The position numbers were made by a program, and so were the translations under genes. From positions 1,540 through 65,539 of the forward strand of contig JBBTUO010000007.1 in assembly GCA_038063715.1 (NCBI GenBank): a stretch of DNA of 64,000 bases. The letters run 5' to 3'. Shown piece by piece: positions 3,276-61,118 of the stretch. The DNA is from Patescibacteria group bacterium. Its GTDB lineage: Bacteria; Patescibacteriota; Minisyncoccia; Phycocordibacterales; SIBU01. The notes under the pieces are model-generated. The model was not told the DNA's origin and made no database searches. It saw only the letters and a program-made list of their open reading frames with translations. Position 1 is the stretch's first letter. Every line of letters begins with the position of its first letter.

Positions 3276-4322
3276 ATGTCTAACCACAAAATAATAAGTG
3301 AGAAAAATTTGCCCGAATCGGAAGTTCAGTTTGATATTGAGATAGACCACCAGACTCTCGCAAAACACCGCACGTCTGGATTAAAAAGGCTTGCTTCAAC
3401 TGTATCGGTGCCAGGCTTTCGTGTTGGCCATGTACCAGAAAATATCGTAGTTCAAAAAGTTGGCGAGCAGGCAATTCTAAAAGAGGCAGCGTACGATGCT
3501 ATTGAAGAAGTGTTACCAGAAATAATAAAAGAGAAAAAAATTTCATCTGTAGGCGAACCCCAGATCTCGATCACTAAACTTGCAACTGGAAATCCTCTCG
3601 TCTTTACATTAGTGCTGTCACTATTTCCAGAAATTAATCTACCTGATTACAAAAAAATCGCGGGCACAGAAAACGCTAAAAAATTAGATGTAGGTGAAGT
3701 CTCTGAAAAAGAAGTAAACGATTTCATTGAAACAGTGCGTAAAAGCTTTGCACACAGCGTAGCGCCGAAGCATGAAGAAACGAAAGAACCTCATGAACAC
3801 CCTCTACCAGAACTGAACGACGAGTTTGTGAAGAAACTTGGTAACTTTAAGGATGTAGCCGATTTTAAAACAAAAATAAAAGAAAACCTCGGGCACGAAA
3901 AAACCCAAAAGGCCAAGGACAAGAAACGCCTCACCCTAGTCGAGGGCATCTTGGATAAAACCAAAATTACTGTACCAAAAGCGCTGATTGAAAATGAGCT
4001 AGTAAAAATGTTGGCACGGTTTCATGATGATGTAACGCGCATGGGAATGACCATGCCGGATTACTTGAAACAGATCAAAAAAACTGAGGATGACTTGAGG
4101 AAGGACTGGCGCAAAGATGCCGAGAAGCATGCCAAGCTTCAGCTCGTTCTAAGCTCAATCGCCGATAAAGAAAAAATTGAGGCTCCGGAAAACGAGGTAG
4201 GGCAGGAGGTGAAACACCTTACCGACGAACACAAAAATGTTGATCCTGTCCGTGCACGCGCCTACGTCACAATGATGCTCATCAACGAAAAAGTATTCGC
4301 ATTTCTGGAAGACCAGAAATAA
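3276..4322 (+). CDS. tig: Trigger factor-like chaperone (short form)
   Basis: The N-terminal ribosome-binding region (VPGFRVGHVPENIVVQKVGEQAILKEAAYDAIEEVL) resembles the tig signature GFRxGxxP. At 348 aa it is shorter than canonical trigger factor, so the PPIase domain is probably absent. Confidence 0.6.
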   Translation: MSNHKIISEKNLPESEVQFDIEIDHQTLAKHRTSGLKRLASTVSVPGFRVGHVPENIVVQKVGEQAILKEAAYDAIEEVLPEIIKEKKISSVGEPQISITKLATGNPLVFTLVLSLFPEINLPDYKKIAGTENAKKLDVGEVSEKEVNDFIETVRKSFAHSVAPKHEETKEPHEHPLPELNDEFVKKLGNFKDVADFKTKIKENLGHEKTQKAKDKKRLTLVEGILDKTKITVPKALIENELVKMLARFHDDVTRMGMTMPDYLKQIKKTEDDLRKDWRKDAEKHAKLQLVLSSIADKEKIEAPENEVGQEVKHLTDEHKNVDPVRARAYVTMMLINEKVFAFLEDQK

Positions 4323-4427
4323 ATAACTAATACCTAATTTCTAATTACCAAATGATGGGTTACCGAGAATCTAATTTGTGGCTTTAAGAATTATTTTAGA
4401 AATTGGAACTTAGAAATTAGAAATTAA

Positions 4428-4465
4428 GGGCGCCGGCAGAGACAATACTGCCGGCGCCCTTCTCG
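4428..4465 (+). terminator. Rho-independent terminator after tig
   Basis: GGGCGCCGGCAG-agacaatact-GCCGGCGCCC followed by TTCTCGCTT. Confidence 0.65.
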
Positions 4466-4980
4466 CTTGCCTAAACCAGGAAGCGGGTGTAGTGTTGTTT
4501 TCAGATCAAATCTTGGTGCGTTTGCCAAGGTTTAAACGCAACCAAACGTTGCACTGTATATGACAAGACTACTAATCTTCCTCATTGACGGACAAACTGG
4601 CGGAGTTGAAGTGGAGTTTGGGCCAGTAAAGGAGATGCGGAAAATGCTCCGAGCCCATCGAACCACAAAGGGCAACAATGCAATCGTGCACGAAGTCCGA
4701 GGCCCAGATATAAATATCAAAGCCCTAGATGTCCTTTGGACACTCCAACATGACCACCTGGAAGGGCGAGGCGAAAAGCCCGGAGGCCTGCAAAATCTGA
4801 TTCTGGACGTCTTCCTTCTTGGCGCCGAAAAAGGCGGAGAAATGCGGGCCGCCCTAAAAACTTCCACACTTCGTGTCGCAGGTGCCAGGATCCCGGGCTG
4901 GCGACGCAGGATTCCACGCTAACCAATAGTTCCTACACTCGCCCCGCTCACCCGAGCCGGGGCTTTTCTTTTGTCCTCAT
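4466..4980 (+). ncRNA. Candidate structured non-coding RNA region (identity unresolved)
   Basis: GC-elevated ~500-nt block. Overlapping ORFs on both strands (4560..4922 +, 4532..4867 -) with non-protein-like composition. Several local hairpins (GGTGCGTTT...AAACGCAACC, GCAAC-caaac-GTTGC). Ends in the hairpin GCCCCG...CGGGGC followed by TTTTCTTTT. A P4-like complementarity exists (GAAAAGCCCGG at ~4778 vs CCCGGGCTGG at ~4896), but the spacing is too short for RNase P. Confidence 0.25.
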
Positions 4981-4998
4981 AACCCTATTTTCTCTGTC

Positions 4999-5034
4999 TA
5001 CATAAATATTACGCTATAGCGTAATATTTATGTA
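4999..5034. repeat. Perfect 36-bp palindrome TACATAAATATTACGCTA|TAGCGTAATATTTATGTA (family core TACGCTATAGCGTA)
   Basis: Read directly from the sequence. Same core as the palindromes at 6964-7001 and 7589-7626. Confidence 0.85.
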
Positions 5035-5122
5035 TCTCCCTTTTTAAAAGGGCTGAATTGCAAGAAAATAAAATTAACATTCCGTCCATCAATCACATTG
5101 GTTAGTCTTTTCTTTCAAAACT

Positions 5123-5878
5123 CTAAGATTTCGGACACATGTCCCACATGTAATGAAACCATGTACGAAACGAGTCGGCCAAATTTTTATTTACAATAAC
5201 CGTAAATGTAATCTCTTCATCCGTTCCGATTTTTCCAATATATAAATGATGCAAAATATTTACGTGATCACCAAATATATCAACGCCTGAAGTGGTGGCA
5301 TATTTCTTCGGCAGAAATTTATAATGCTTTCCCACAGACCCGATAATCGGGTGTTTACTTTCTTTCACATCGTAATCAAACAAGTGGTGCATCTCAATTT
5401 TCCTACGCTTCATTTGTTCAAGAAACCCAGGGACAAATGATTTTACCCGATCATCTAGCCATGCTCCTTGTGCGGCAATAGAATAAAAAGGTTCACCGGT
5501 TTTTATAATATCTCTCATGTACTGCTTCCAACCCTCCTTCCCTTTGTATGTGCGCACTTGGTATTCCTCCGGCCGAGAAAAGTGTAATTTTTGCAATTCA
5601 GGCATCGCTGTGTCGAGCGCTTCAAATTTTTCCGCCAGCACCTCCGAGAGTTTTGTTGGCTCAACCGCCTGATACTTGTTTTCAAAAGACTCGACTATTT
5701 CAATGGCCAAGCCTTTTTCCATCAAGCGCTGTAAAGAATCGTACACATTCCTTCTGTGTACACCGGATTTTTTAGAAATGATCCCAACCCCCTGTTCCCC
5801 CATTTCAAGTAGGGTTTCGTATATTTTGGCCTCATTTTTAGCCAATCCTAGGCTCTGAAACAACTCTGTGTATTTCAT
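5123..5878 (-). CDS. TrmB-family transcriptional regulator (paralog 1)
   Basis: N-terminal wHTH LGLAKNEAKIYETLLEMGEQGVGIISKKSGVHRRNVYDSLQRLMEKGL, typical of TrmB. The C-terminal part is similar to paralogs at 13625-14362 and 24827-25642. Confidence 0.7.
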   Translation of the reverse strand: MKYTELFQSLGLAKNEAKIYETLLEMGEQGVGIISKKSGVHRRNVYDSLQRLMEKGLAIEIVESFENKYQAVEPTKLSEVLAEKFEALDTAMPELQKLHFSRPEEYQVRTYKGKEGWKQYMRDIIKTGEPFYSIAAQGAWLDDRVKSFVPGFLEQMKRRKIEMHHLFDYDVKESKHPIIGSVGKHYKFLPKKYATTSGVDIFGDHVNILHHLYIGKIGTDEEITFTVIVNKNLADSFRTWFHYMWDMCPKS

Positions 5879-6009
5879 ATATACCCACTATATACCGTCC
5901 TTTTGTTTTTGTAAAGGTGGTAACTCCCACTCGTGAGTGATATTTGCCACTCTTAAATAAAGGTATAGAGTGCCTTTCAGACAGAAACAATAAAAGAGAA
6001 AGTAGTCCT

Positions 6010-6543
6010 ATGAAACGAAATGATAATGAATTCAGCTTGTTCCTTGATAACGCGATATTCGCCAAGTATACCCGGAATAACACCTTTGCTAGAAAAATAG
6101 AGTGTGATCAGGCCAATGTGAGCCGCTGGCGGAGAGGTCTTCTTTTTCCACCAATTGTAAAACTCCCTATCATCGCAAAGGTGCTCAAAATTAGCCTCAA
6201 AGAACTCACACGCTTGTGGAAAACGCAAAAATATCCTGGATCAGCCACTGCTCATGAAAAAGTATCTGGATCATGTAAAGTGAAAGCTCGCTTGCTTCTT
6301 CACTTCTACGATGGGGAAAAGTTTCTGGGCCAAACGTTTCCAGAAGTCGAGGTGGCAAGTTGGGACGACCTGCAACAAGTGGTGATTGAAACCTACCCAG
6401 GCACAAAACGGAACCTTGATGGTATTCCGACCAAATTCTCGGGTGTTCCGATCTTGCTTCAACTACCCTCGTTGCGTGAAGGCTACGGCCCCAACACGAC
6501 CGTTCGAGTAATGCAGGTAATTCCAATGTCAAACCAAAACTGA
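6010..6543 (+). CDS. XRE-like helix-turn-helix domain protein
   Basis: HTH-like segment FAKYTRNNTFARKIECDQANVSRWRRG. The ATG at 6010 is the likely start; the ORF track begins at 5944. Confidence 0.5.
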   Translation: MKRNDNEFSLFLDNAIFAKYTRNNTFARKIECDQANVSRWRRGLLFPPIVKLPIIAKVLKISLKELTRLWKTQKYPGSATAHEKVSGSCKVKARLLLHFYDGEKFLGQTFPEVEVASWDDLQQVVIETYPGTKRNLDGIPTKFSGVPILLQLPSLREGYGPNTTVRVMQVIPMSNQN

Positions 6544-6551
6544 AAAACCGT

Positions 6552-6827
6552 ATGAAATTTATAAAAGAATACGCTTGCTTTGTTCTCATGGTGTTTCTAG
6601 CGGGTCGGTCATTGTATAAAGCGTTGTTACCTTCTGCTTTGATAAATCAGGAAGGTTTAGGTAGTCAGGCACTCTGGTTTGCAACCGCTCTCGCATGCTC
6701 CCTCACCGCGATATTCTGCGCCTTCACAAGTGCGCTATACAAAGTTATCGATGATGAAAAGAAAGAGCGCGCGCAAAATGCAGGAAACAATGCACCCTCG
6801 CGTCAGAAATCGAACATGCGCGAATAA
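6552..6827 (+). CDS. Hypothetical small membrane protein
   Basis: 91-aa ORF with two hydrophobic segments, immediately after the HTH gene. A terminator-like hairpin follows (~6843-6875). Confidence 0.3.
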   Translation: MKFIKEYACFVLMVFLAGRSLYKALLPSALINQEGLGSQALWFATALACSLTAIFCAFTSALYKVIDDEKKERAQNAGNNAPSRQKSNMRE

Positions 6828-6963
6828 GGTAAAAGTAAAACTAACAATAGGCGACCAGCAATGGCCGCCTTTTCTTTTATGCCGACAGAATGTACATCCC
6901 CCACTACACTCTATCTCCTGTTCCCTGTTCCTACCCCCTATCCACAGACCTCTATTTTCCTAC

Positions 6964-7001
6964 ATACATAAATCTTACGCTATAGCGTATAATTTATGTA
7001 T
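6964..7001. repeat. Imperfect ~38-bp palindrome ACATAAATCTTACGCTA|TAGCGTATAATTTATGT, overlapping the start codon of the downstream gene
   Basis: Core TACGCTATAGCGTATAATTT is identical to the downstream copy at 7601-7620. The ATG at 7000 lies in the right arm. Confidence 0.8.
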
Positions 7002-7566
7002 GGGAAAAATTGAAGAAGAATATCGCAAAAGACGCCGTAATGCCGAGATTCAGAAAGTTGTTCTTGGAACAATTGCGGTAGCGGGTGGTTTGAGCGTTTC
7101 CCTGCTGGCGCCGAATGCTCTGCAAGCATTAAAGATGCTTGGATTCAAAACAACTCGGCGAATTGAGTCAATAAAAGAAGCAAAAACGCGTCTGATCAGA
7201 GCTGGATTAATTTCTTACAACGGCAATGTTCTTTCACTGACGGCGAAAGGTGAAACAAAATTGTCCCTGCTGGAGCTAAATGAATATAAAATAAAAAAAC
7301 CGAAACGGTGGGACAAAAAATGGCGAGTTTTAATTTTTGATATCAGTGAGAGCAGAAAAACTTTGCGGGATAAGGTCAGAAGGACATTAATCGCCGTAGG
7401 TTTTATTCGACTTCAAGATAGCGTCTGGGTTTATCCCTATGACTGCGAAGATTTAATTGCTCTACTAAAGACTGATTTCAAAATCGGCAAGGAGTTGTTG
7501 TATATGATTGTCGACAGCATAGAAAACGACGAAATAATCAAAGAACAATTCGGCAGTATAAGTTAA
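7000..7566 (+). CDS. wHTH-like + Cas2/VapD-like domain protein (paralog 1), not in a CRISPR context
   Basis: 188 aa. The C-terminal half (KKWRVLIFDISESRKTLRDKVRRTLIAVGFIRLQDSVWVYPYDCEDLIALLK...LLYMIVD) resembles the Cas2 motif pattern (vLvvYDvs..krR.kv.k.L...G.RvQ.SVf.c.l). The N-terminal ~100 aa is basic and helix-rich (LLAPNAL...). The 295-aa ORF-track version, with its N-terminal extension through a terminator and palindrome, is rejected. Confidence 0.55.
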   Translation: MGKIEEEYRKRRRNAEIQKVVLGTIAVAGGLSVSLLAPNALQALKMLGFKTTRRIESIKEAKTRLIRAGLISYNGNVLSLTAKGETKLSLLELNEYKIKKPKRWDKKWRVLIFDISESRKTLRDKVRRTLIAVGFIRLQDSVWVYPYDCEDLIALLKTDFKIGKELLYMIVDSIENDEIIKEQFGSIS

Positions 7567-7588
7567 TATGAAAGCATCAAAAACCAAT

Positions 7589-7626
7589 ATACAGAAATTA
7601 TACGCTATAGCGTATAATTTCTGTAT
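7589..7626. repeat. Perfect 38-bp palindrome ATACAGAAATTATACGCTA|TAGCGTATAATTTCTGTAT
   Basis: Read directly. Third member of the TACGCTATAGCGTA family, 23 bp downstream of the wHTH-Cas2-like gene. Confidence 0.85.
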
Positions 7627-7687
7627 ATAATGTGTGGATGGATGCGGGCCTAAATTAAGCAGAACGCCTCCAATACAGTTTGAACTT

Positions 7688-17865: not shown

Positions 17866-17906
17866 TGTATACGTTTATAATACACGACCGTGTATTATAA
17901 ACGTAT
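17866..17906. repeat. Perfect inverted repeat TATACGTTTATAATACACG-ac-CGTGTATTATAAACGTATA (19-bp arms)
   Basis: Read directly. Lies between two convergent genes. Confidence 0.8.
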
Positions 17907-17931
17907 ACCGAAAAATAAAGCGGATTATGAA

Positions 17932-18231: not shown

Positions 18232-18354
18232 TTAATTAATATACATTACATCATATATAGCAAAACATACCTTGCTGCCTATAAACTTTAGTTCAGTAAA
18301 GTAACCAAGATTATATTTTTTCTGTTTAAATTTTGAAATGCATGTATAAAAAAC

Positions 18355-19413: not shown

Positions 19414-19478
19414 AAAATTATATGCTTATATTAACAATTAGCGCATTTATGAACAAGGTTTCGCAGGTTTAGCAAATT

Positions 19479-19496
19479 ACTTTAGTTAACTAAAGT
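19479..19496. repeat. Perfect palindrome ACTTTAGTTAACTAAAGT (copy 1 of 3)
   Basis: Read directly. Lies in the purD / PRT-domain gene intergenic region. Confidence 0.8.
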
Positions 19497-19506
19497 GGAA
19501 AAATTT

Positions 19507-27303: not shown

Positions 27304-27388
27304 CAGTTTTGCCCGCGCTACTCCGTGGTCGCAACAACTGAGGCCGTCGCACATACCTCTTTATCCATGGTTCGACGCAACTTGATCA
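27304..27388 (+). repeat. ~85-bp double-hairpin repeat, copy A (diverged)
   Basis: TTTTGCCCGCGCTACTCCGTGGTCGCAACAACTGAGGCCGTCGCAC...CGACGCAACTTGA. Aligns with copies at 29215-29300, 29366-29410, 34950-35010 and 42725-42815 (reverse orientation). Confidence 0.7.
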
Positions 27389-27396
27389 GAACCATT

Positions 27397-27416
27397 TACT
27401 TTAGTTAACTAAAGTA
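27397..27416. repeat. Perfect palindrome TACTTTAGTTAACTAAAGTA (copy 2 of 3)
   Basis: Read directly. Confidence 0.8.
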
Positions 27417-29130: not shown

Positions 29131-29152
29131 ATTTCACTGGTATTTTAACCCA

Positions 29153-29182
29153 CCAGCTACTTTAGTTAACTAAAGTAGCTGG
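29153..29182. repeat. Perfect 30-bp palindrome CCAGCTACTTTAGTTAACTAAAGTAGCTGG (copy 3 of 3)
   Basis: Read directly. Begins 23 bp after the stop of the upstream gene. Confidence 0.85.
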
Positions 29183-29214: not shown

Positions 29215-29300
29215 TCCCAATTTTGCCCACGGTACTCCGTGGTTGCAACAATTGCGGACGTCGCACCCCTCTGTTTCCGCAGCGCGACGCAAACTTGAGA
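29215..29300 (+). repeat. ~85-bp double-hairpin repeat, copy B (best-preserved)
   Basis: CCCAATTTTGCCCACGGTACTCCGTGGTTGCAACAATTGCGGACGTCGCACCCCTCTGTTTCCGCAGCGCGACGCAAACTTGAGAG. Hairpin 1 is CCACGG-tact-CCGTGG. Hairpin 2 is GACGTCGC...GCGCGACG. Confidence 0.8.
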
Positions 29301-29365: not shown

Positions 29366-29410
29366 GTGCAATTTTGCCCACGGTACCCCGTGGTTGCCAC
29401 AATTGATCCC
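29366..29410 (+). repeat. Partial copy (hairpin-1 half) of the ~85-bp repeat, copy B'
   Basis: GCAATTTTGCCCACGGTACCCCGTGGTTGCCACAATTGATCCC. Confidence 0.7.
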
Positions 29411-29530: not shown

Positions 29531-30325
29531 CTACTTAATGTCTATTAGGACGGGGCAATGATCCGAACCCATGACTTCGGGGAGGATTTCAGCGGATTTG
29601 AGGCGGGGAAGGAGAGCGGGAGAAATCAGGACGTAGTCGATACGCCAGCCAACGTTGCGAGCGCGGGCGTTGGCAAAATGCGACCACCAGGTGTAGTGGC
29701 CATTGCCTTTTTTGAATTGACGAAAGGTGTCGATAAATCCGGCGTCAATAAATGCCTGAAAACCGGCCCGTTCTTCTTTGGTAAACCCCTTCAAACCTTC
29801 GTTTTCCTTTGGCCGAGCCAAATCATCCGGCGTGTGAGCGACATTTAAGTCGCCGCAGAAAATGACAGGCTTTTTCTTTTCCAAAAATTTACAATAGGCC
29901 AAAAATACCGGGTCCCATTGCTTGTGGCGAAGGGGGATTCGGCTTAAATCATCTTTCGCGTTCGGAGTATAAACCGTAACAACATAAAAATCTTTATACT
30001 CGGCGGCGATCACTCGGCCTTCGGTCAGTGGATCACCGTATTTGTCCGCGCCAAGTTTACATTTTTTGATAATCGCCTCAGGAAAACCATTTATAACTGA
30101 AAGCGGTTTTTCTTTGGTAAAAATCGCCGTTCCGGAATAACCTTTTTTCTCGGCGGAGTTCCAGTATTCAGTATATTCGGCCAAATCCACCTCCGACTGG
30201 TGCTCCTGCGCCTTTGTTTCCTGCAAACACAAAATATCCGGCTGATATTTTTCGATAAACGGCACAAAAAGCCCTTTTTTGTGCACCGCGCGAATGCCGT
30301 TGACGTTCCATGAGATGAGTTTCAT
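29531..30325 (-). CDS. xth: Exodeoxyribonuclease III (AP endonuclease, Xth family)
   Basis: MKLISWNVNGIRA...LCLQETK...DLNVAHT...WWSHFANARARNVGWRIDYVL...GSDHCPV are the EEP-family catalytic motifs. Confidence 0.9.
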   Translation of the reverse strand: MKLISWNVNGIRAVHKKGLFVPFIEKYQPDILCLQETKAQEHQSEVDLAEYTEYWNSAEKKGYSGTAIFTKEKPLSVINGFPEAIIKKCKLGADKYGDPLTEGRVIAAEYKDFYVVTVYTPNAKDDLSRIPLRHKQWDPVFLAYCKFLEKKKPVIFCGDLNVAHTPDDLARPKENEGLKGFTKEERAGFQAFIDAGFIDTFRQFKKGNGHYTWWSHFANARARNVGWRIDYVLISPALLPRLKSAEILPEVMGSDHCPVLIDIK

Positions 30326-32393: not shown

Positions 32394-32439
32394 CCATATA
32401 CAGATATTACATGCGGTCGTGTATAATAGCTGTATATGG
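32394..32439. repeat. Palindromic element CCATATACAG...CATGCGGTCG...CTGTATATGG overlapping the start codon of the downstream gene
   Basis: Perfect 10-bp outer arms (CCATATACAG / CTGTATATGG). The inner core shares CATGCGGTCG with the downstream element at 33089-33126. The ATG at 32436 lies inside the right arm. Confidence 0.75.
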
Positions 32440-33002
32440 GAAATCTTGAAAAAGATTCGCGAAGACGAACGCGCAAAGGAAATATTGAGCGGGCCGTTCT
32501 CAACACCGTTGCGGCGGCGGGAGTGTTGAGTGTTGCACTGCTTGCCCCCAACGCACTCAAAATGCTTGGGGTAAAAAACTGGGCCGGATGGAGCCGACAA
32601 AAAGAGGGGGTGGCGGAAGCGAGAAAGCGACTGATAAAAAATGGTTTGCTGGAATATAAAAATAATTCCCTGATGGTAACCGTAAAAGGGGAAGCGAAGT
32701 TGCGACATCTTGAACTGCTGAATTTCAGATATCCAAAACCGAAGCGATGGGACAAAAAGTGGCGCCTGCTAATTTTTGATATTGCTGAGAGTAAACGAAT
32801 ATTGAGAGATAAAGTCAGATTAACTTTGCAAGCAATTGGTTTTGTAAAACTGCAACACAGTGTTTGGGCATATCCCTATAATTGCGAAGACCTGATTGCG
32901 CTTTTGAAAACCGATTTTCGTGTCGGCACTGATCTCTTGTACATCATTGCCGACAACGTTGAAAACGACGCGGTGTTGAAAAAATATTTTGGGTTGCAGT
33001 AA
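32436..33002 (+). CDS. wHTH-like + Cas2/VapD-like domain protein (paralog 2)
   Basis: Clear paralog of 7000-7566 (LLAPNAL, KRWDKKWRLLIFDIAESKRILRDKVRLTLQAIGFVKLQHSVWAYPYNCEDLIALLKTDF). Confidence 0.55.
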   Translation: MGNLEKDSRRRTRKGNIERAVLNTVAAAGVLSVALLAPNALKMLGVKNWAGWSRQKEGVAEARKRLIKNGLLEYKNNSLMVTVKGEAKLRHLELLNFRYPKPKRWDKKWRLLIFDIAESKRILRDKVRLTLQAIGFVKLQHSVWAYPYNCEDLIALLKTDFRVGTDLLYIIADNVENDAVLKKYFGLQ

Positions 33003-33088
33003 AAGGCACGTTCCAAGGTGTCGCGCGAACGGACAGGTAGAAACCGAGTAGAAGCTTGGATCTCTCTAAAAAACACAGAACTCCCCGT

Positions 33089-33126
33089 CTACAGACATTG
33101 CATGCGGTCGCATGTAATGTCTGTAG
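33089..33126. repeat. 38-bp palindrome CTACAGACATTGCATGCG-gt-CGCATGTAATGTCTGTAG (1 mismatch)
   Basis: Read directly. Followed by ATGGG as in the upstream copy. Lies 87 bp downstream of paralog 2. Confidence 0.8.
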
Positions 33127-33256
33127 ATGGGTGGGGGGGGTTGTAGCAGGGATAAGAGGTGTAGTAGGGACACTAGGCGTAACAAGGTAGAACGATTGTA
33201 GACAACTAGCGGGTAACAAAGACGGGGCGTTTTATTTTTTATTGTGGAAATCTCTT

Positions 33257-34950: not shown

Positions 34951-35010
34951 CAATTTTTCTCACGGTACCCCGTGACTGAAAAATTGAGGACATCGCGCTT
35001 ACCGACTTCA
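34950..35010 (+). repeat. ~85-bp double-hairpin repeat, copy C (diverged)
   Basis: CAATTTTTCTCACGGTACCCCGTGACTGAAAAATTGAGGACATCGCGC...GCGATGCAAACT. Confidence 0.6.
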
Positions 35011-37271: not shown

Positions 37272-37516
37272 AATTGAAAAGTTTTGAAGTGAACAAATTT
37301 AAAACCAAAACCACAATCAGTATGTTCATAAAGCCGATTTTTGTCAAAGTGGCCGATGTTTGGAATTTTTGCTACACTGGGCAACATTACAAGCCTGTAG
37401 CTTTGGATAGGTAGGCCTGAACAATCGTTCAAGTCTAAAATCTGAAGCTACTTTAAAATTGGATGGACGAGTATTCGTAGCAATTCGTATATTCGTACAC
37501 ATTCGTATATTTGTAT

Positions 37517-39634
37517 ATGCGCAAGCAAGAATACTCGATTGAACTTGGCGGGAAAACTTTAACAGCAACCTTTAGCGACCTAGCCGAGCAAGCCAACGGC
37601 TCAGTGCTTATTCGCTATGGCAACACTGTTTTCCTTGCCACGGCAGTGATGTCGAAAGGGCAAAAGGACGGAGACTGGTTTCCACTCACTGTGGACTACG
37701 AAGAGCGTTTTTACGCAAGCGGAAAAATTCTTGGTAGCAGATTTGTGCGACGCGAAGGACGACCGAGCGAAGAGGCGATTTTGTCCGGTAGAATTGTGGA
37801 CCGAACCATTCGTCCACTTTTCGATCAACACATCAGATACGAAGTACAGGTGGTAATCACGGTGCTTGCCGTAGACGAGGACGACCCAGATGTTTTGGGC
37901 GTCATCGGCGCCTCTCTTGCACTTGGAACCTCAAATATTCCTTGGAATGGCCCTGTTTCAGCGGTACGAATTGGAATGGAAAAAGGTAAAGATGGTTTCA
38001 TAATTAATCCGACCTACAAGGTGCGTGATGGCGCCGATTACTGCGCGGATATTCTTGCTTGTGGAAAAGATGGGCACATCAATATGATTGAGGTTGGTGG
38101 AAAAGAAGTTCCAGAAAAAACCCTCATGGCTGGACTTAAAAAAGCCTCGGAGGAAATAGAAAAATTGCAGGAATTCCAGAAAAAAATTATTGCTGAAATT
38201 GGTGTCACCAAAAAAGAGGTGCCTGTGCCTGAAATGCCTAAAGAACTTGTATCCCTTTTCAACGAGCACATTGAGAAAAAATTACCTGAATCAGTGATGT
38301 CGGGCAAACCGGGACATGACGCGATTTACGAAATAAAAGGGGAGTGGATGGAGTTGTTCAAGGCTACTTTTCCTGAAATAAAAGCAGCTTTTGCCGACTC
38401 ATATTTTGAAGAAAAGGTGAATGAAATAATTCACAGAGAAGCTGTGGAAAATGGAAAAAGACCAGACAGTAGAGGGATGGATCAGTTACGACCGCTATTT
38501 GCACAGGCAGGTGGCATTTCACCTATACTTCACGGCTCTGGAATTTTCTATCGTGGAGGAACACATATTTTTTCCGCGCTGACTTTGGGAGGCCCTGGAG
38601 AATCACAGGTGGTGGAAGGGATGGAATTTCAAACAAAAAAGCGATTCATGCATCACTACAATTTTCCTCCGTTCTCGTCTGGAGAAACAGGGAGAATTGG
38701 TTCGACCAACAGACGAATGATCGGCCACGGCGCACTTGCGGAAAAAGCATTATCGGCTGTTTTGCCACCAAAAGAAACTTTCCCATACACTATTCGTCTA
38801 GTGTCAGAAGCGTTCGCGTCCAACGGCTCGACCTCGATGGGTTCGGTCTGCGGTTCTACTATCGCAATGATGGATGGAGGAATTCCAATTACCGCGCCAG
38901 TTGCCGGTATCGCGTCCGGACTCATGATGAAGAATGAAAAAGAATACAAGGTGCTCACTGACATTCAGGGGCCAGAGGACCATCATGGTGACATGGATTT
39001 TAAAGTTGCTGGTACGACAGCGGGGGTTACTGCAGTGCAAATGGATGTGAAAGTTGGAGGTATTCCACTGCATATTCTTGAGGAAGCATTTGAAAAGGCG
39101 AAACAAGCCCGGCTTCAAATTCTCGAGGTGATTACAAAAGAAATTGCACAACCTCGCGCTGACATTTCACCAAACGCACCGAAAATTTTGGTTATAAAAA
39201 TCAACCCAGACCAAATTGGTCTTGTTATCGGAAGCGGCGGCAAAACCATAAATGAAATCCGAGATACAACGGGGGTTACCGGAATTGATATCGAGGAGGA
39301 TGGTACCGTCTTCATCACTGGTAAAGACGGAAGCGCGGAAGCGGCGAAGAAAATTATTGAGGACATGACTCGAGAATACAAACCTGGTGAAAAATTTATT
39401 GGTACTGTTGTAAAAATTGCCGAGTTCGGAGCATTTGTTTCAATCAGTCCAAACGCTGACGGACTCGTTCATGTTTCAGAAATGGCAAACTTTAGAATTG
39501 ATCGAGTAGAAATGTACCTTAAGGTGGGCGACAAAGTGCCAGTGGTAGTAAAAGAAATAGATAAAGAGAAGGGGCGGATTAAATTGTCAATAAAGGACGC
39601 TGATCCTGATTTCATTAAGCGCAAAGCCGCTTAA
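37517..39634 (+). CDS. pnp: Polyribonucleotide nucleotidyltransferase (PNPase)
   Basis: Two RNase PH domains, KH (GSGGKTINEIRD) and S1 (GTVVKIAEFGAFVSI). The ORF track starts at a TTG (37511); the ATG at 37517 is more likely. Confidence 0.92.
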   Translation: MRKQEYSIELGGKTLTATFSDLAEQANGSVLIRYGNTVFLATAVMSKGQKDGDWFPLTVDYEERFYASGKILGSRFVRREGRPSEEAILSGRIVDRTIRPLFDQHIRYEVQVVITVLAVDEDDPDVLGVIGASLALGTSNIPWNGPVSAVRIGMEKGKDGFIINPTYKVRDGADYCADILACGKDGHINMIEVGGKEVPEKTLMAGLKKASEEIEKLQEFQKKIIAEIGVTKKEVPVPEMPKELVSLFNEHIEKKLPESVMSGKPGHDAIYEIKGEWMELFKATFPEIKAAFADSYFEEKVNEIIHREAVENGKRPDSRGMDQLRPLFAQAGGISPILHGSGIFYRGGTHIFSALTLGGPGESQVVEGMEFQTKKRFMHHYNFPPFSSGETGRIGSTNRRMIGHGALAEKALSAVLPPKETFPYTIRLVSEAFASNGSTSMGSVCGSTIAMMDGGIPITAPVAGIASGLMMKNEKEYKVLTDIQGPEDHHGDMDFKVAGTTAGVTAVQMDVKVGGIPLHILEEAFEKAKQARLQILEVITKEIAQPRADISPNAPKILVIKINPDQIGLVIGSGGKTINEIRDTTGVTGIDIEEDGTVFITGKDGSAEAAKKIIEDMTREYKPGEKFIGTVVKIAEFGAFVSISPNADGLVHVSEMANFRIDRVEMYLKVGDKVPVVVKEIDKEKGRIKLSIKDADPDFIKRKAA

Positions 39635-39639
39635 TGAAA

Positions 39640-39725
39640 TAATTTCTAAATTATAATTTCTAATTTCTAAAAACCCTAGGATCATTTGGAAATTTCATTA
39701 GATATTAGGACTTAGAAAGTAGAAA
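39640..39725. repeat. AT-rich intergenic element with inverted termini (AATTTCTAAATTATAATTTCTAATTTCTAAA ... TTAGAAAGTAGAAATTTAT)
   Basis: The left 30 nt is identical to the copy at 41072-41105. Right halves are similar. Related copies at ~4335-4420, ~46370-46410, ~57215-57300 and ~9140-9180. Confidence 0.7.
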
Positions 39726-41069: not shown

Positions 41070-41155
41070 CTTTATTAATTTCTAAATTATAATTTCTAAT
41101 TTCTAAACCGGAGTCAAATTCGAATTTTATTAGACATTAGTAATTAGAAATTTAT
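41070..41155. repeat. AT-rich intergenic element, copy near-identical to 39640-39725
   Basis: ATTAATTTCTAAATTATAATTTCTAATTTCTAAA...TATTAGACATTAGTAATTAGAAATTTAT. Confidence 0.7.
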
Positions 41156-43896: not shown

Positions 43897-44397
43897 AAGG
43901 CTCCTAATTGAGGATTTTATGGCCTTGTTGAGCCTTTTTTTGGATTTAGGCCAACAAGATATGAGAATGTCTTTTAAAATAAGCCTATATTCTTAGCTAT
44001 TCTGCCGGTCATTCGGTAAAGTGGCTCTGTGAAGCCATATAAGGAAAATCACTCTTGCCTCTCTATACCTTTTATTATAGTCTTTCCTACCCTGAAGTCA
44101 ACCTTTTAAATTACTCCTGTGGATAAGAATTGCTCGGTTAATTTCCTTCGCTGAAGCGCTTCGCAAGCTTGAAAATTGTGTCGGTTCGCTTGCGGTAAAT
44201 TAAAAACTCCTCAAAGATTCGTCAAACAGTTTAATTTACTGGCTCACCTCGTAATTTTCTAAACTTGCTACGCTAACCTGCTCAGTAAATCAACCTCGCT
44301 TACGACAACTCCCTAAAATTCAGAAATTTTATGGAGTTGTAGGTCATGAGACCTTTAATAGTTTCGTTTAATTCGTATTTTCGTATATTATTCCTGC

Positions 44398-56654: not shown

Positions 56655-56775
56655 ATTATACGAAAATACGAATGAAGACGAATATACGAACATATACGAA
56701 AGGGGAAGGGGTGCGAGATTCATTTTTCGTGACCATTTCGTATATTCGTACAATTCGTATTTTCGTATATTAATT
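56655..56775. promoter_or_regulatory. Large inverted repeat of TACGAA / TTCGTA repeats around a G-rich centre (AGGGGAAGGGGTGCG)
   Basis: Left arm ATTATACGAAAATACGAATGAAGACGAATATACGAACATATACGAA. Right arm TTTTTCGTGACCATTTCGTATATTCGTACAATTCGTATTTTCGTATATTAAT. Related elements lie upstream of 58094 and 61119. Confidence 0.6.
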
Positions 56776-57208: not shown

Positions 57209-57341
57209 ACACAAAGGTGCATGCGTCAATTTCTAAGTCCTAATATCTAATTTCTAATCAAAGATCTGGGTTAGATATTAGAAATTATAATTTAGAAATT
57301 TTGCACAATTCACCAGTAGATATATCTGATATAATAAATCA

Positions 57342-57995: not shown

Positions 57996-58093
57996 TATCA
58001 ATGCTAATATACTAATGATACGAATGGGGAAGTTGCATTTGATTGGTATAATTAGTATGAATTCGTATATTGGTATCGCTACATAAAATAATC

Positions 58094-60996: not shown

Positions 60997-61118
60997 TTAC
61001 ACTAGTAGCGATGCCGATATACGAATGAATGCTAATTATACAAATGGAGAAGGGCGGGATTCGTATCATTAGAACAATTAGTATATTAGTATCGATACTT
61101 TGTGGTAAAATAATAACC

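Follow-up and report, generated by a model that had tools for sequence, protein, structure and literature searches.

A PaaX-related protein family of Patescibacteria with a Cas2-like domain, and the palindromes that bracket its genes

In E. coli, PaaX binds TGATTC(N27)GAATCA and autorepresses the Px promoter by excluding RNA polymerase (review, PMC9493321). We analyzed a 64,000-nt stretch of DNA from a Patescibacteria group bacterium (GenBank assembly GCA_038063715.1, contig JBBTUO010000007.1, positions 1,540 to 65,539 of the forward strand; hereafter, the window), in which two paralogous genes, each bracketed by long palindromes, encode small proteins with the same predicted domain order as PaaX (8A39, TIGR02277; phenylacetyl-CoA-responsive, E. 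coli/Pseudomonas) and Rv0674 (3KFW), i.e., a putative winged helix and then a Cas2-like PF20803 domain. The likeness extends to layout, in that an operator lies over the gene's own promoter both for PaaX at Px and, by prediction, at the family's upstream site. However, the PaaX operator consists of two short inverted boxes far apart (N27), while the family site has 8-bp boxes whose inner edges are 20 bp apart and, unlike that of PaaX, a conserved central core that appears to co-vary with the Cas2-like domain. PaaX is about 310 aa long and carries a C-terminal ligand-binding domain, whereas the family protein has 188 aa and lacks that domain. Also unlike PaaX, the family has a second predicted operator copy past the stop codon and several apparently orthogonal paralogs per genome, is essentially restricted to Paceibacteria/Parcubacteria, and has invariant FDI..E / DCE motifs that are absent from PaaX. 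No paa (phenylacetate catabolic) genes were found near family genes; their neighbors encode LigA, GatCA, ThyA, SMC, RNase III, aminoacyl-tRNA synthetases, RsmE, and a Xer-like recombinase.

Two further systems bear comparison. Cas2 (TIGR01573, PF09827) has the same ferredoxin-like fold, and the family's LLIFDI..R.KV...L...GF..LQ.SVW parallels vvYDI..R.kv.k.L...G..vQ.SVF of Cas2, including the Asp in catalytic register; unlike in Cas2, a predicted 100-aa winged-helix domain precedes the Cas2-like domain. In Cas1-Cas2, the Cas2 dimer lies along duplex DNA. In REP/RAYT systems, two palindrome copies flank a gene whose product presumably recognizes them, and each paralog has palindromes of its own. 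The family gene is likewise bracketed by its own, paralog-matched palindrome copies. In contrast to REP-RAYT, the family lacks both the HUH/Y1 transposase fold and a genome-wide amplification of its palindromes, its upstream copy is a predicted promoter plus operator, and the read-out would be double-stranded and two-fold symmetric.

The gene pair and its protein family

The gene at 32436-33002 (paralog 2) had been described in an initial annotation, made from the sequence alone, as a clear paralog of 7000-7566 (paralog 1), and BLASTP confirmed this: 32436-32999 and 7000-7563 share 109/189 identities (58%, E 2e-80). These are the only two family genes in the window by tblastn, and the protein of paralog 2 is identical to NCBI locus AAB511_00975. 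The coding features discussed below are:

32436-33002, + strand: paralog 2 gene; 188 aa, predicted N-terminal winged helix and PaaX_M/Cas2-like domain (103-185)
32595-32633, + strand: codons 54-66 of paralog 2, predicted recognition-helix segment with specificity positions R54, E57, G58, and E61
32856-32858, + strand: codon 141 (His) of paralog 2, in the Cas2-like domain; co-varies with the type of operator core
7000-7566, + strand: paralog 1 gene; 188 aa, 58% identical to paralog 2

In both proteins, the stretch from residue 103 to 175 matches PF20803 (PaaX_M, the central Cas2-like domain of PaaX), scoring 65.8 and 69.5 bits where the gathering score is 24. Otherwise, sequence profiles connect the family to PaaX weakly. 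Scores against TIGR02277 (PaaX) were 29.4 and 31.2 bits versus a cut-off of 264.55, i.e., short of equivalog level; that alignment covers residues 62-154, and both it and the alignments to Protein Data Bank (PDB) profiles begin at residues 55-62. The N-terminal domain gave no match to the Pfam PaaX N-domain (PF07848) and a weak one to HTH_45 only (E 0.11). The Pfam scan likewise gave no match to PaaX_C (PF08223), the C-terminal effector domain that binds aryl-CoA, and the protein ends at residue 188. In Foldseek, the top PDB matches were Rv0674 (3KFW) and E. coli PaaX (8A39), both at probability 1.0, with Cas2 proteins next. The AlphaFold2 (AF2) model has a mean predicted local distance difference test score (pLDDT) of 72, with residues 57-188 at 80-90 and residues 1-56 below 50. 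It comprises a helix (57-68) and a beta-hairpin wing (72-81), both at a pLDDT of about 90, then a helix at 83-94 and a beta-alpha-beta-beta-alpha-beta domain. We place the predicted recognition helix at about residues 54-68 and the wing at residues 72-81. A hydrophobic segment at residues 20-42, where AF2 is unconfident, presumably corresponds to helices 1-2 of the PaaX winged helix, judging by a comparison with the E. coli PaaX sequence; a membrane anchor was considered for this segment and set aside for that correspondence.

The match to Cas2 itself is partial. TIGR01573 scored 24.7 and 26.5 bits, at the level of its cut-off (24.5), in an alignment confined to model positions 2-44 of 96, and PF09827 stayed below threshold at 14.6 bits (cut-off 23.8). 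No CRISPR repeat array occurs in the 64-kb window, and no Cas1-like family was found among the recurrent neighbors of the 81 family genes surveyed below. A genuine CRISPR Cas2 was rejected on this partial model match and on the lack of both cas1 and an array in the window. A phage or defense element was also rejected: the PHROGs search of the family protein gave no match, and PADLOC returned partial Cas2-model matches and weak WH_III-A matches only. Scans of the paralog proteins with Pfam, TIGRFAM-type profiles, and PHROGs matched no transposase family. The family is a Patescibacteria-specific two-domain offshoot of PaaX and not a CRISPR Cas2. Its invariant residues, which are not common to the aligned parts of PaaX and Rv0674, are D115 (in the register of the Cas2 catalytic Asp), E118, S142, D149-C150-E151, K158, D160, Y169, and E176.

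A word-indexed search returned 624 relatives, essentially all from Patescibacteria, and an exhaustive profile search returned 396 representatives (50%-identity clusters) at E<=1e-30 and 2530 at E<=1e-10. The best 150 representatives are all about 154-259 aa long and nearly all 170-220 aa. Many listed relatives carry the label 'CRISPR-associated endonuclease Cas2', which would be a misannotation of DNA-binding regulators, one that distorts CRISPR censuses in the Candidate Phyla Radiation. We found no description of the family in the searchable literature.

Anatomy of the sites and covariation with the protein

The palindromes that the initial annotation had placed on both sides of paralog 2 were recovered with slightly wider limits, and paralog 1 has a corresponding pair:

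32395-32438: predicted upstream operator of paralog 2, within the palindrome 32394-32440; dyad 32416/32417; overlaps promoter and start codon
32421-32426, + strand: TATAAT -10 box of paralog 2, in the right spacer of the upstream operator, 9 nt before ATG
33084-33131: predicted downstream operator of paralog 2; dyad 33107/33108, 105 nt past the stop codon
6961-7004: predicted upstream operator of paralog 1, covering the palindrome 6961-7002; dyad 6982/6983, 17 nt before ATG
6988-6993: TATAAT of paralog 1, inside the upstream operator
7587-7628: predicted downstream operator of paralog 1; perfect 21+21 palindrome, dyad 7607/7608

The upstream palindrome of paralog 2 has 16-nt arms at 94% plus inner arms (18/24 symmetric positions), with core CGG/TCG, the slash marking the dyad, and outer boxes TACAGATA and TAGCTGTA. 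The downstream palindrome is the better of the two (23-nt arms, 91% complementary; 21/24 symmetric), and the copies are 79% identical as direct repeats. Their shared core is CATGCGGTCG, as had been noted; an ATG said to follow it does not, the upstream copy reading TGTA there. Nor are the outer arms paralog-specific, as first thought, since both paralogs have ...TCTGTA at half-site positions 13-18, while the core (CTATAG in paralog 1 vs CGGTCG in paralog 2) and the spacer differ. An ATGGG at the downstream copy had been taken as the possible start of a decayed gene; it mirrors the CCCGT of the left arm and belongs to the palindrome, and the open reading frame (ORF) that follows has 23 codons and no similarity to the family. 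The shared-arm pattern TACAGANATT...AATNNCTGTA matched five times in the window (0.00 expected by chance), at family sites only.

To place these sites in the family, we analyzed 80 fetched Paceibacteria loci (from Taylor-, Kaiser-, Zambryski-, Nomura-, Ryan-, Adlerbacteria, and others) together with the window's own two, 81 family genes in all. Sites were found by a six-base core pattern plus symmetry, with a threshold of >=15/24 symmetric positions. Roughly 80% of the fetched loci are arranged as in the window. At this threshold, upstream sites were present at 64/81 genes and downstream sites at 60/81, against a background of 0.9% of 1977 sites with the same 6-bp core. Palindromes are thus a regular feature of orthologous and paralogous loci: both copies are present at 67/81 genes, and those that failed the search lie mostly at contig ends or have a core outside the search pattern (L076, L080, L067). 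The three closest homologs of paralog 2 (62-67% identity) are laid out alike; as in the window, 19 nt separate the dyad from ATG.

Numbered outward from the dyad, the site is tripartite, with two 8-bp outer boxes, AT-rich spacers, and a core, GC-KRYM-GC. Positions 1-4 make up this conserved core, seen as CTATAG, CGGTCG/CGACCG, CGATCG, and CGGCCG, and its central step is always purine-pyrimidine; symmetry at positions 2-4 is 0.91-1.0, partly by construction. Positions 5-10 are AT-rich and only 0.64-0.76 symmetric. At positions 11-18, symmetry rises to 0.87-0.97 despite low information content, and we therefore regard these positions as the specificity-determining box. The boxes on either side of the dyad leave a 20-bp gap and span 36 bp.

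The sites are specific to their locus. Over the 20 most variable positions, upstream and downstream copies agree at 15.3 positions within a locus vs 7.8 between loci, and a locus's own downstream site was the best match to its upstream site, among all 67, in 45/67 loci. The four half-sites of one locus carry the same base at 441/536 outer-box positions, and this base differs between loci. Several paralogs occur per genome, each with a different site (three in Taylorbacteria MHRQ01, three in CAZYRJ01), and a metagenome-assembled genome with locus prefix Q7R65 has four paralogs. Extra, solo sites number about 9 in 750 kb, and several of these have the outer box of the local paralog. Concerted differences between the copies of a locus, symmetric within each copy, are in excess (18 vs 64 confined to a single arm).

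As the initial annotation had proposed, protein and site co-vary, and they do so in a code-like way. We paired 67 proteins each with the consensus half-site of its own locus (residue numbering follows paralog 2). Residue 61 and position 14 formed the strongest of all column pairs, with a mutual information of 1.46 bit (z 17.6): Arg occurred with G in 28/28 loci, Ser/Ala with A in 13/13, Asn/Leu mostly with T, and Glu with C in 3/3, both window paralogs included. At the paralog 2 locus, Glu61 with C14 holds in all four half-sites. The link persisted in every divergence bin, P(same base given same residue) being 0.96-1.00 vs 0.10-0.33, while control columns showed no contrast in this test, and the residue-61 rule was correct for 10-11 of 12 held-out loci. 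Three nearby residues behave similarly: 57 follows positions 16-17 (GT accompanies Glu in 31/34 loci, AC accompanies Asp, and C accompanies Arg), 54 follows positions 16-18, and 58 follows position 15 (C accompanies Phe, 4/4). With spacings of i, i+3, i+4, and i+7, residues 54, 57, 58, and 61 form one face of a helix; in the AF2 model they fall at the start of the helix that precedes the wing, where winged helices read DNA. The pairings follow commonly cited residue-base preferences (Arg-G, Glu/Asp-C, Asn-A, Ala/Ser-T·A). Together with the absence of a T-run after the palindromes, this covariation supports specific recognition by the encoded protein rather than a generic terminator. Neither outcome that the initial annotation had named as refuting, a lack of correlation between protein and palindrome or palindromes missing from orthologous loci, was observed.

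A check of the N-terminal region for covariation with the palindrome cores had also been suggested. This region does co-vary with the site, but with the outer boxes; the cores track residues 121, 125, 138, and 141 instead. At residue 141, Asp goes with A at position 2 (CTATAG type) in 28/37 loci, and Asn, His, or Lys goes with C there (CGRYCG type) in 28/28; His141 occurs with a CGRYCG core in 7/7 loci. Residues 138, 121, and 125 co-vary with core positions 2, 4, and 5. In the ranked list, the top partners of core position 2 include no column of the N-terminal domain, and the outer box gives no contrast for residue 141. These sequence data suggest that the core is tracked by residues of the Cas2-like domain, and the residue-141 rule explains the window, in which paralog 2 combines His141 with CGGTCG and paralog 1 combines Asp141 with CTATAG. 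The invariant FDI..E / DCE motifs, K158, D160, Y169, and E176 adjoin the putative core-reading positions. That residues of the Cas2-like domain vary with the central base pairs suggests that this fold can read DNA and may bear on how Cas2 came onto duplex DNA.

Predicted autorepression and competing explanations

The upstream site is held in close register with the start of the gene. Its dyad lies exactly 17 nt before ATG in 39 loci and 18-21 nt before it in 7, paralog 2 included, and a TAnnnT box occurs at -16..-5 in 39 of these 46 loci. In the 17-nt class, right-arm positions 6-11 read T-A-t-a-a-T in 32, 35, 22, 25, 23, and 32 of 35 loci, respectively, and ATG occupies site positions 18-20. 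Since this places the -10 box six nucleotides before the start codon, the promoter would be leaderless, or nearly so. Among the window's ORFs of >=150 aa, only 5/50 have a Shine-Dalgarno-like motif, while many have a TATAAT-like box 6-8 nt before ATG; leaderless mRNAs thus appear, from sequence, to be the rule in this genome. Examples in the window are at 29826(-), 41366(-), 57341(+), and 33675(-).

A TC(A/C)(A/C) / TTGTCAA flank adjoins upstream sites only. The flank (TTGTCAA / TCCAC) was rejected as a -35 box; at about 25 nt from the -10 box it is too far away. A resemblance to the DnaA box, such as TTATCCACA in L002 and L003, is confined to a few loci. The downstream site lies at a median of 37.5 nt past the stop codon (interquartile range 27-59) and is usually the more perfect palindrome. 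It is independent of what follows, the next gene being on the + strand in 38 loci and on the - strand in 29, at no fixed distance. We rejected the downstream site as a promoter of the next gene: distances are scattered over 17-900 nt, neighbors lie on either strand, and downstream arms are far less -10-like than the upstream right arm.

Beyond the observed anatomy, family-wide conservation, and protein-DNA covariation, we infer a dimer geometry, repression, and a role for the downstream site. In the account that we consider probable, the family protein is a minimal PaaX-type protein that binds as a dimer to its tripartite palindrome and autorepresses its own leaderless promoter, with the downstream copy as an auxiliary operator or roadblock and with paralogs that have diversified their sites and reading residues jointly. 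The protein would consist of the winged helix-turn-helix and Cas2-like dimerization domain of PaaX without the C-terminal ligand-binding domain. On a palindrome of 36-48 bp, a Cas2-like dimer would sit over the dyad and read the core GC-KRYM-GC, while two winged helices would extend about 14.5 bp to each side and read the 8-bp outer boxes via residues 54, 57, 58, and 61, leaving the AT-rich spacers only loosely constrained. Autorepression is the likely mechanism. In the upstream palindrome, the right spacer contains the -10 box and the right outer box ends at ATG, so that a bound protein would cover the -10 box and the start point and shut off its own transcription. The downstream copy may act as an auxiliary operator, by looping, or as a roadblock that seals the unit. 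Paralogs and orthologs would have diversified site and reading residues together; the window pair keeps its outer box (Glu61/C14) and differs in the core.

To our knowledge, transcription factors are very few in Patescibacteria, for which hardly any experimental genetics exists. Cognate sites, a leaderless layout, and an amino-acid/base code make their regulation testable in vitro or in E. coli, and for synthetic biology the family would offer many mutually orthogonal predicted repressor/operator pairs on one small scaffold.

Several points weigh against this account. The upstream site of 29 loci stands 28-78 nt from ATG, a distance at which activation would be no less conceivable than repression, and no sigma-70-like -35 box is recognizable at the upstream sites. 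We infer the dimer and its geometry, and the AF2 model is unconfident for residues 1-56. Shared ancestry can inflate covariation statistics, and the residue 141/core link is only suggestive because it was weaker in the divergence-binned test (0.62-0.79 vs 0.36-0.50). Spacer positions are still 64-76% symmetric and, along with the 18 concerted symmetric differences, hint at a constraint on palindromy itself. It would be biologically unusual for a repressor to have only itself as an evident target, and simple autoregulation does not account for the downstream site.

Alternatively, the protein-bound sites might serve as insulators, roadblocks, or chromosome-organizing elements, with autoregulation secondary, that block read-through to and from packed neighbors in a terminator-poor genome; solo sites would act alike between convergent genes. 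The downstream site is tied to the stop codon whatever the strand of the next gene, and in most of 46 loci the upstream site lies 20-130 nt past the stop codon of a co-directional upstream gene. Family genes stand among housekeeping genes in conserved synteny, and both downstream sites of the window, as well as an orphan site at 17867-17908, lie between convergent genes. However, the rarity of solo sites makes a general, genome-wide role unlikely, canonical GC-rich terminators with T-runs occur in the same window, and the exact 17-nt register with the -10 box and ATG argues for selection on promoter control. We regard this explanation as unlikely, though it is the strongest competitor to autorepression.

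It is doubtful that the Cas2-like domain is more than a dimerization module, one that reads the core base-specifically and also nicks or strand-exchanges DNA at the dyad via a family-specific invariant acidic cluster (D115, E118, D149-C150-E151, D160), so that each gene with its sites would be a domesticated or still-active self-recognizing cassette. The downstream copy, the concerted differences, the upstream-only flank, and the invariant residues keep chemistry at the dyad alive as a low-probability reading; if it were true, the family would provide a sequence-specific, DNA-acting relative of Cas2 outside CRISPR.

Still less probable is an origin of the palindrome-gene-palindrome unit as a selfish cassette, present or past, with a Cas2-like nuclease or strand-transferase that cuts at the dyad and orphan palindromes as scars of excision or recombination. 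Bracketing on both sides, several paralogs per genome each with its own ends, the presence of orphan sites, and copies that are inverted in some loci (L010, 20/20; L059, L042, L007) would all suit such an element, as would the family-specific invariant residues, D115 among them, beside the core-covarying ones, a central step that is always purine-pyrimidine, and the tyrosine recombinase gene next to paralog 2. Yet near-identical copies within a genome are absent (the window paralogs are 58% identical), and the genes hold their places across genera, in LigA-x-GatC-GatA, SHMT-x-ThyA-DHFR, SMC-x-RNase III-NusB, and GlyRS-x-peptidase M16-MetRS-TatD, with further shared syntenies at SecY...Map-x, ParB-x, and TrmB-like-x. 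The upstream copy is in single-nucleotide register with promoter and start codon, inspection revealed no target-site duplication, PHROGs gave no match, and no recurrent recombinase family was found beside the gene among the loci examined. The family paralogs are old and not recently mobile.

Very improbable, finally, are protein-independent hairpins (unusual terminators, RNA-stability elements, or REP-like repeats). In their favor, all copies fold strongly (z -5 to -12), the predicted 3' UTR includes a 22-bp stem made by the downstream copy, perfect arms of 20-27 bp are common among downstream copies, and concerted symmetric changes are in excess. Against them, the stems are AT-rich with no T-run (the terminator scan called none at either palindrome, and GTGGGG or AATGTG follows), canonical terminators exist elsewhere in the window, symmetry is lower at positions 5-10 than at 11-18, unlike a stem, arm mismatches lack a G-U signature (69 G.T, 47 A.C, 141 other), the central 'loop' is itself symmetric, the sites are not dispersed like REP (2-3 per locus, 6 in 64 kb), and the amino-acid/base correspondences are inexplicable without protein read-out.

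An integrase or dif-type site was rejected as well: the palindromes go with the family gene and not with an integrase. The Xer-like tyrosine recombinase gene is a neighbor of paralog 2, and the initial annotation had called the region GC-rich and integrase-associated; its GC content is mildly raised only (0.47-0.49 vs about 0.43), and the integrase association lost its meaning once no recombinase family recurred beside family genes.

Orphan sites and other repeats

Two further sites of the family type occur in the window, apart from any family gene of their own:

4999-5034: orphan third site of paralog-1 type; outer box TTTATGTA, same as the paralog 1 upstream site
17867-17908: orphan site of a third specificity; outer box TAAACGTA, core CGACCG; perfect 20+20 palindrome

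The latter has no cognate family gene in the window. The former sits 3' of a TrmB-like gene, 5123-5878(-), so that three paralog-1-type sites mark off two segments of 4999-7628, the first of which holds this minus-strand gene and two unknown genes. In L036, L046, and L062, a TrmB-like gene immediately precedes the family gene and shares its strand, which prompts the idea of an inversion between sites. Between tig (3276-4322) and the orphan palindrome, ~675 nt (4323-4998) are without a convincing ORF or Rfam match, the Rfam scan of the window having found tRNAs only; this stretch closes with a terminator-like hairpin and T-run (about 4940-4975) and may be an undescribed RNA or small gene.

Among the fetched loci, the orientation of the two copies varies, being inverted in L010, L059, L042, and L007 and direct in L040, L034, L051, and L038. 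In L010, which has an asymmetric spacer, the downstream copy matches the reverse complement of the upstream copy at 20/20 positions vs 14/20 in direct orientation. Contigs often break inside the downstream palindrome, as in L002 (5660-5713), L031 (5626-5663), and L081 (end of contig). Assembly probably stops there because the palindrome is perfect, and such breaks may account for the many family members on ~1-kb contigs. L012 has two copies of another palindrome, (T)GTTNAATAATTATCCNTACGGATAATTATTNAAC, at 215-248 and 872-907; their distance of 657 nt fits a family-sized gene, and they may bracket a distant relative or a relic.

Four other repeats were seen in the window. The motif ATTCGTATAT (<=1 mismatch) occurs 24 times vs 3.6 expected, often in tandem with an 18-nt period just upstream of start codons (37483-37518, 44371-44388, 56664-56770 on both strands, 58061-58070, and 61017-61026), and may be a promoter-proximal element for an unknown factor. 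The exact 20-mer AATTTCTAAATTATAATTTC occurs three times (0.02 expected), at 39641-39660, 41077-41096, and 57281-57300(-), with a degenerate copy at 4399-4425(-), and belongs to a 32-nt repeat family with TAATTTCTAA units. Palindromic repeats of 37 nt, CAATTTTGCCCACGGTACTCCGTGGTTGCAACAATTG, at 27304-27340, 29218-29254, 29369-29405, and 34951-34987, all lie in the slightly GC-richer 26-38 kb stretch that holds paralog 2 and could serve a different factor as operators. A third palindrome family, ACTTTAGTTAACTAAAGT, has four intergenic copies, at 18278-18303, 19472-19497, 27391-27416, and 29152-29177.

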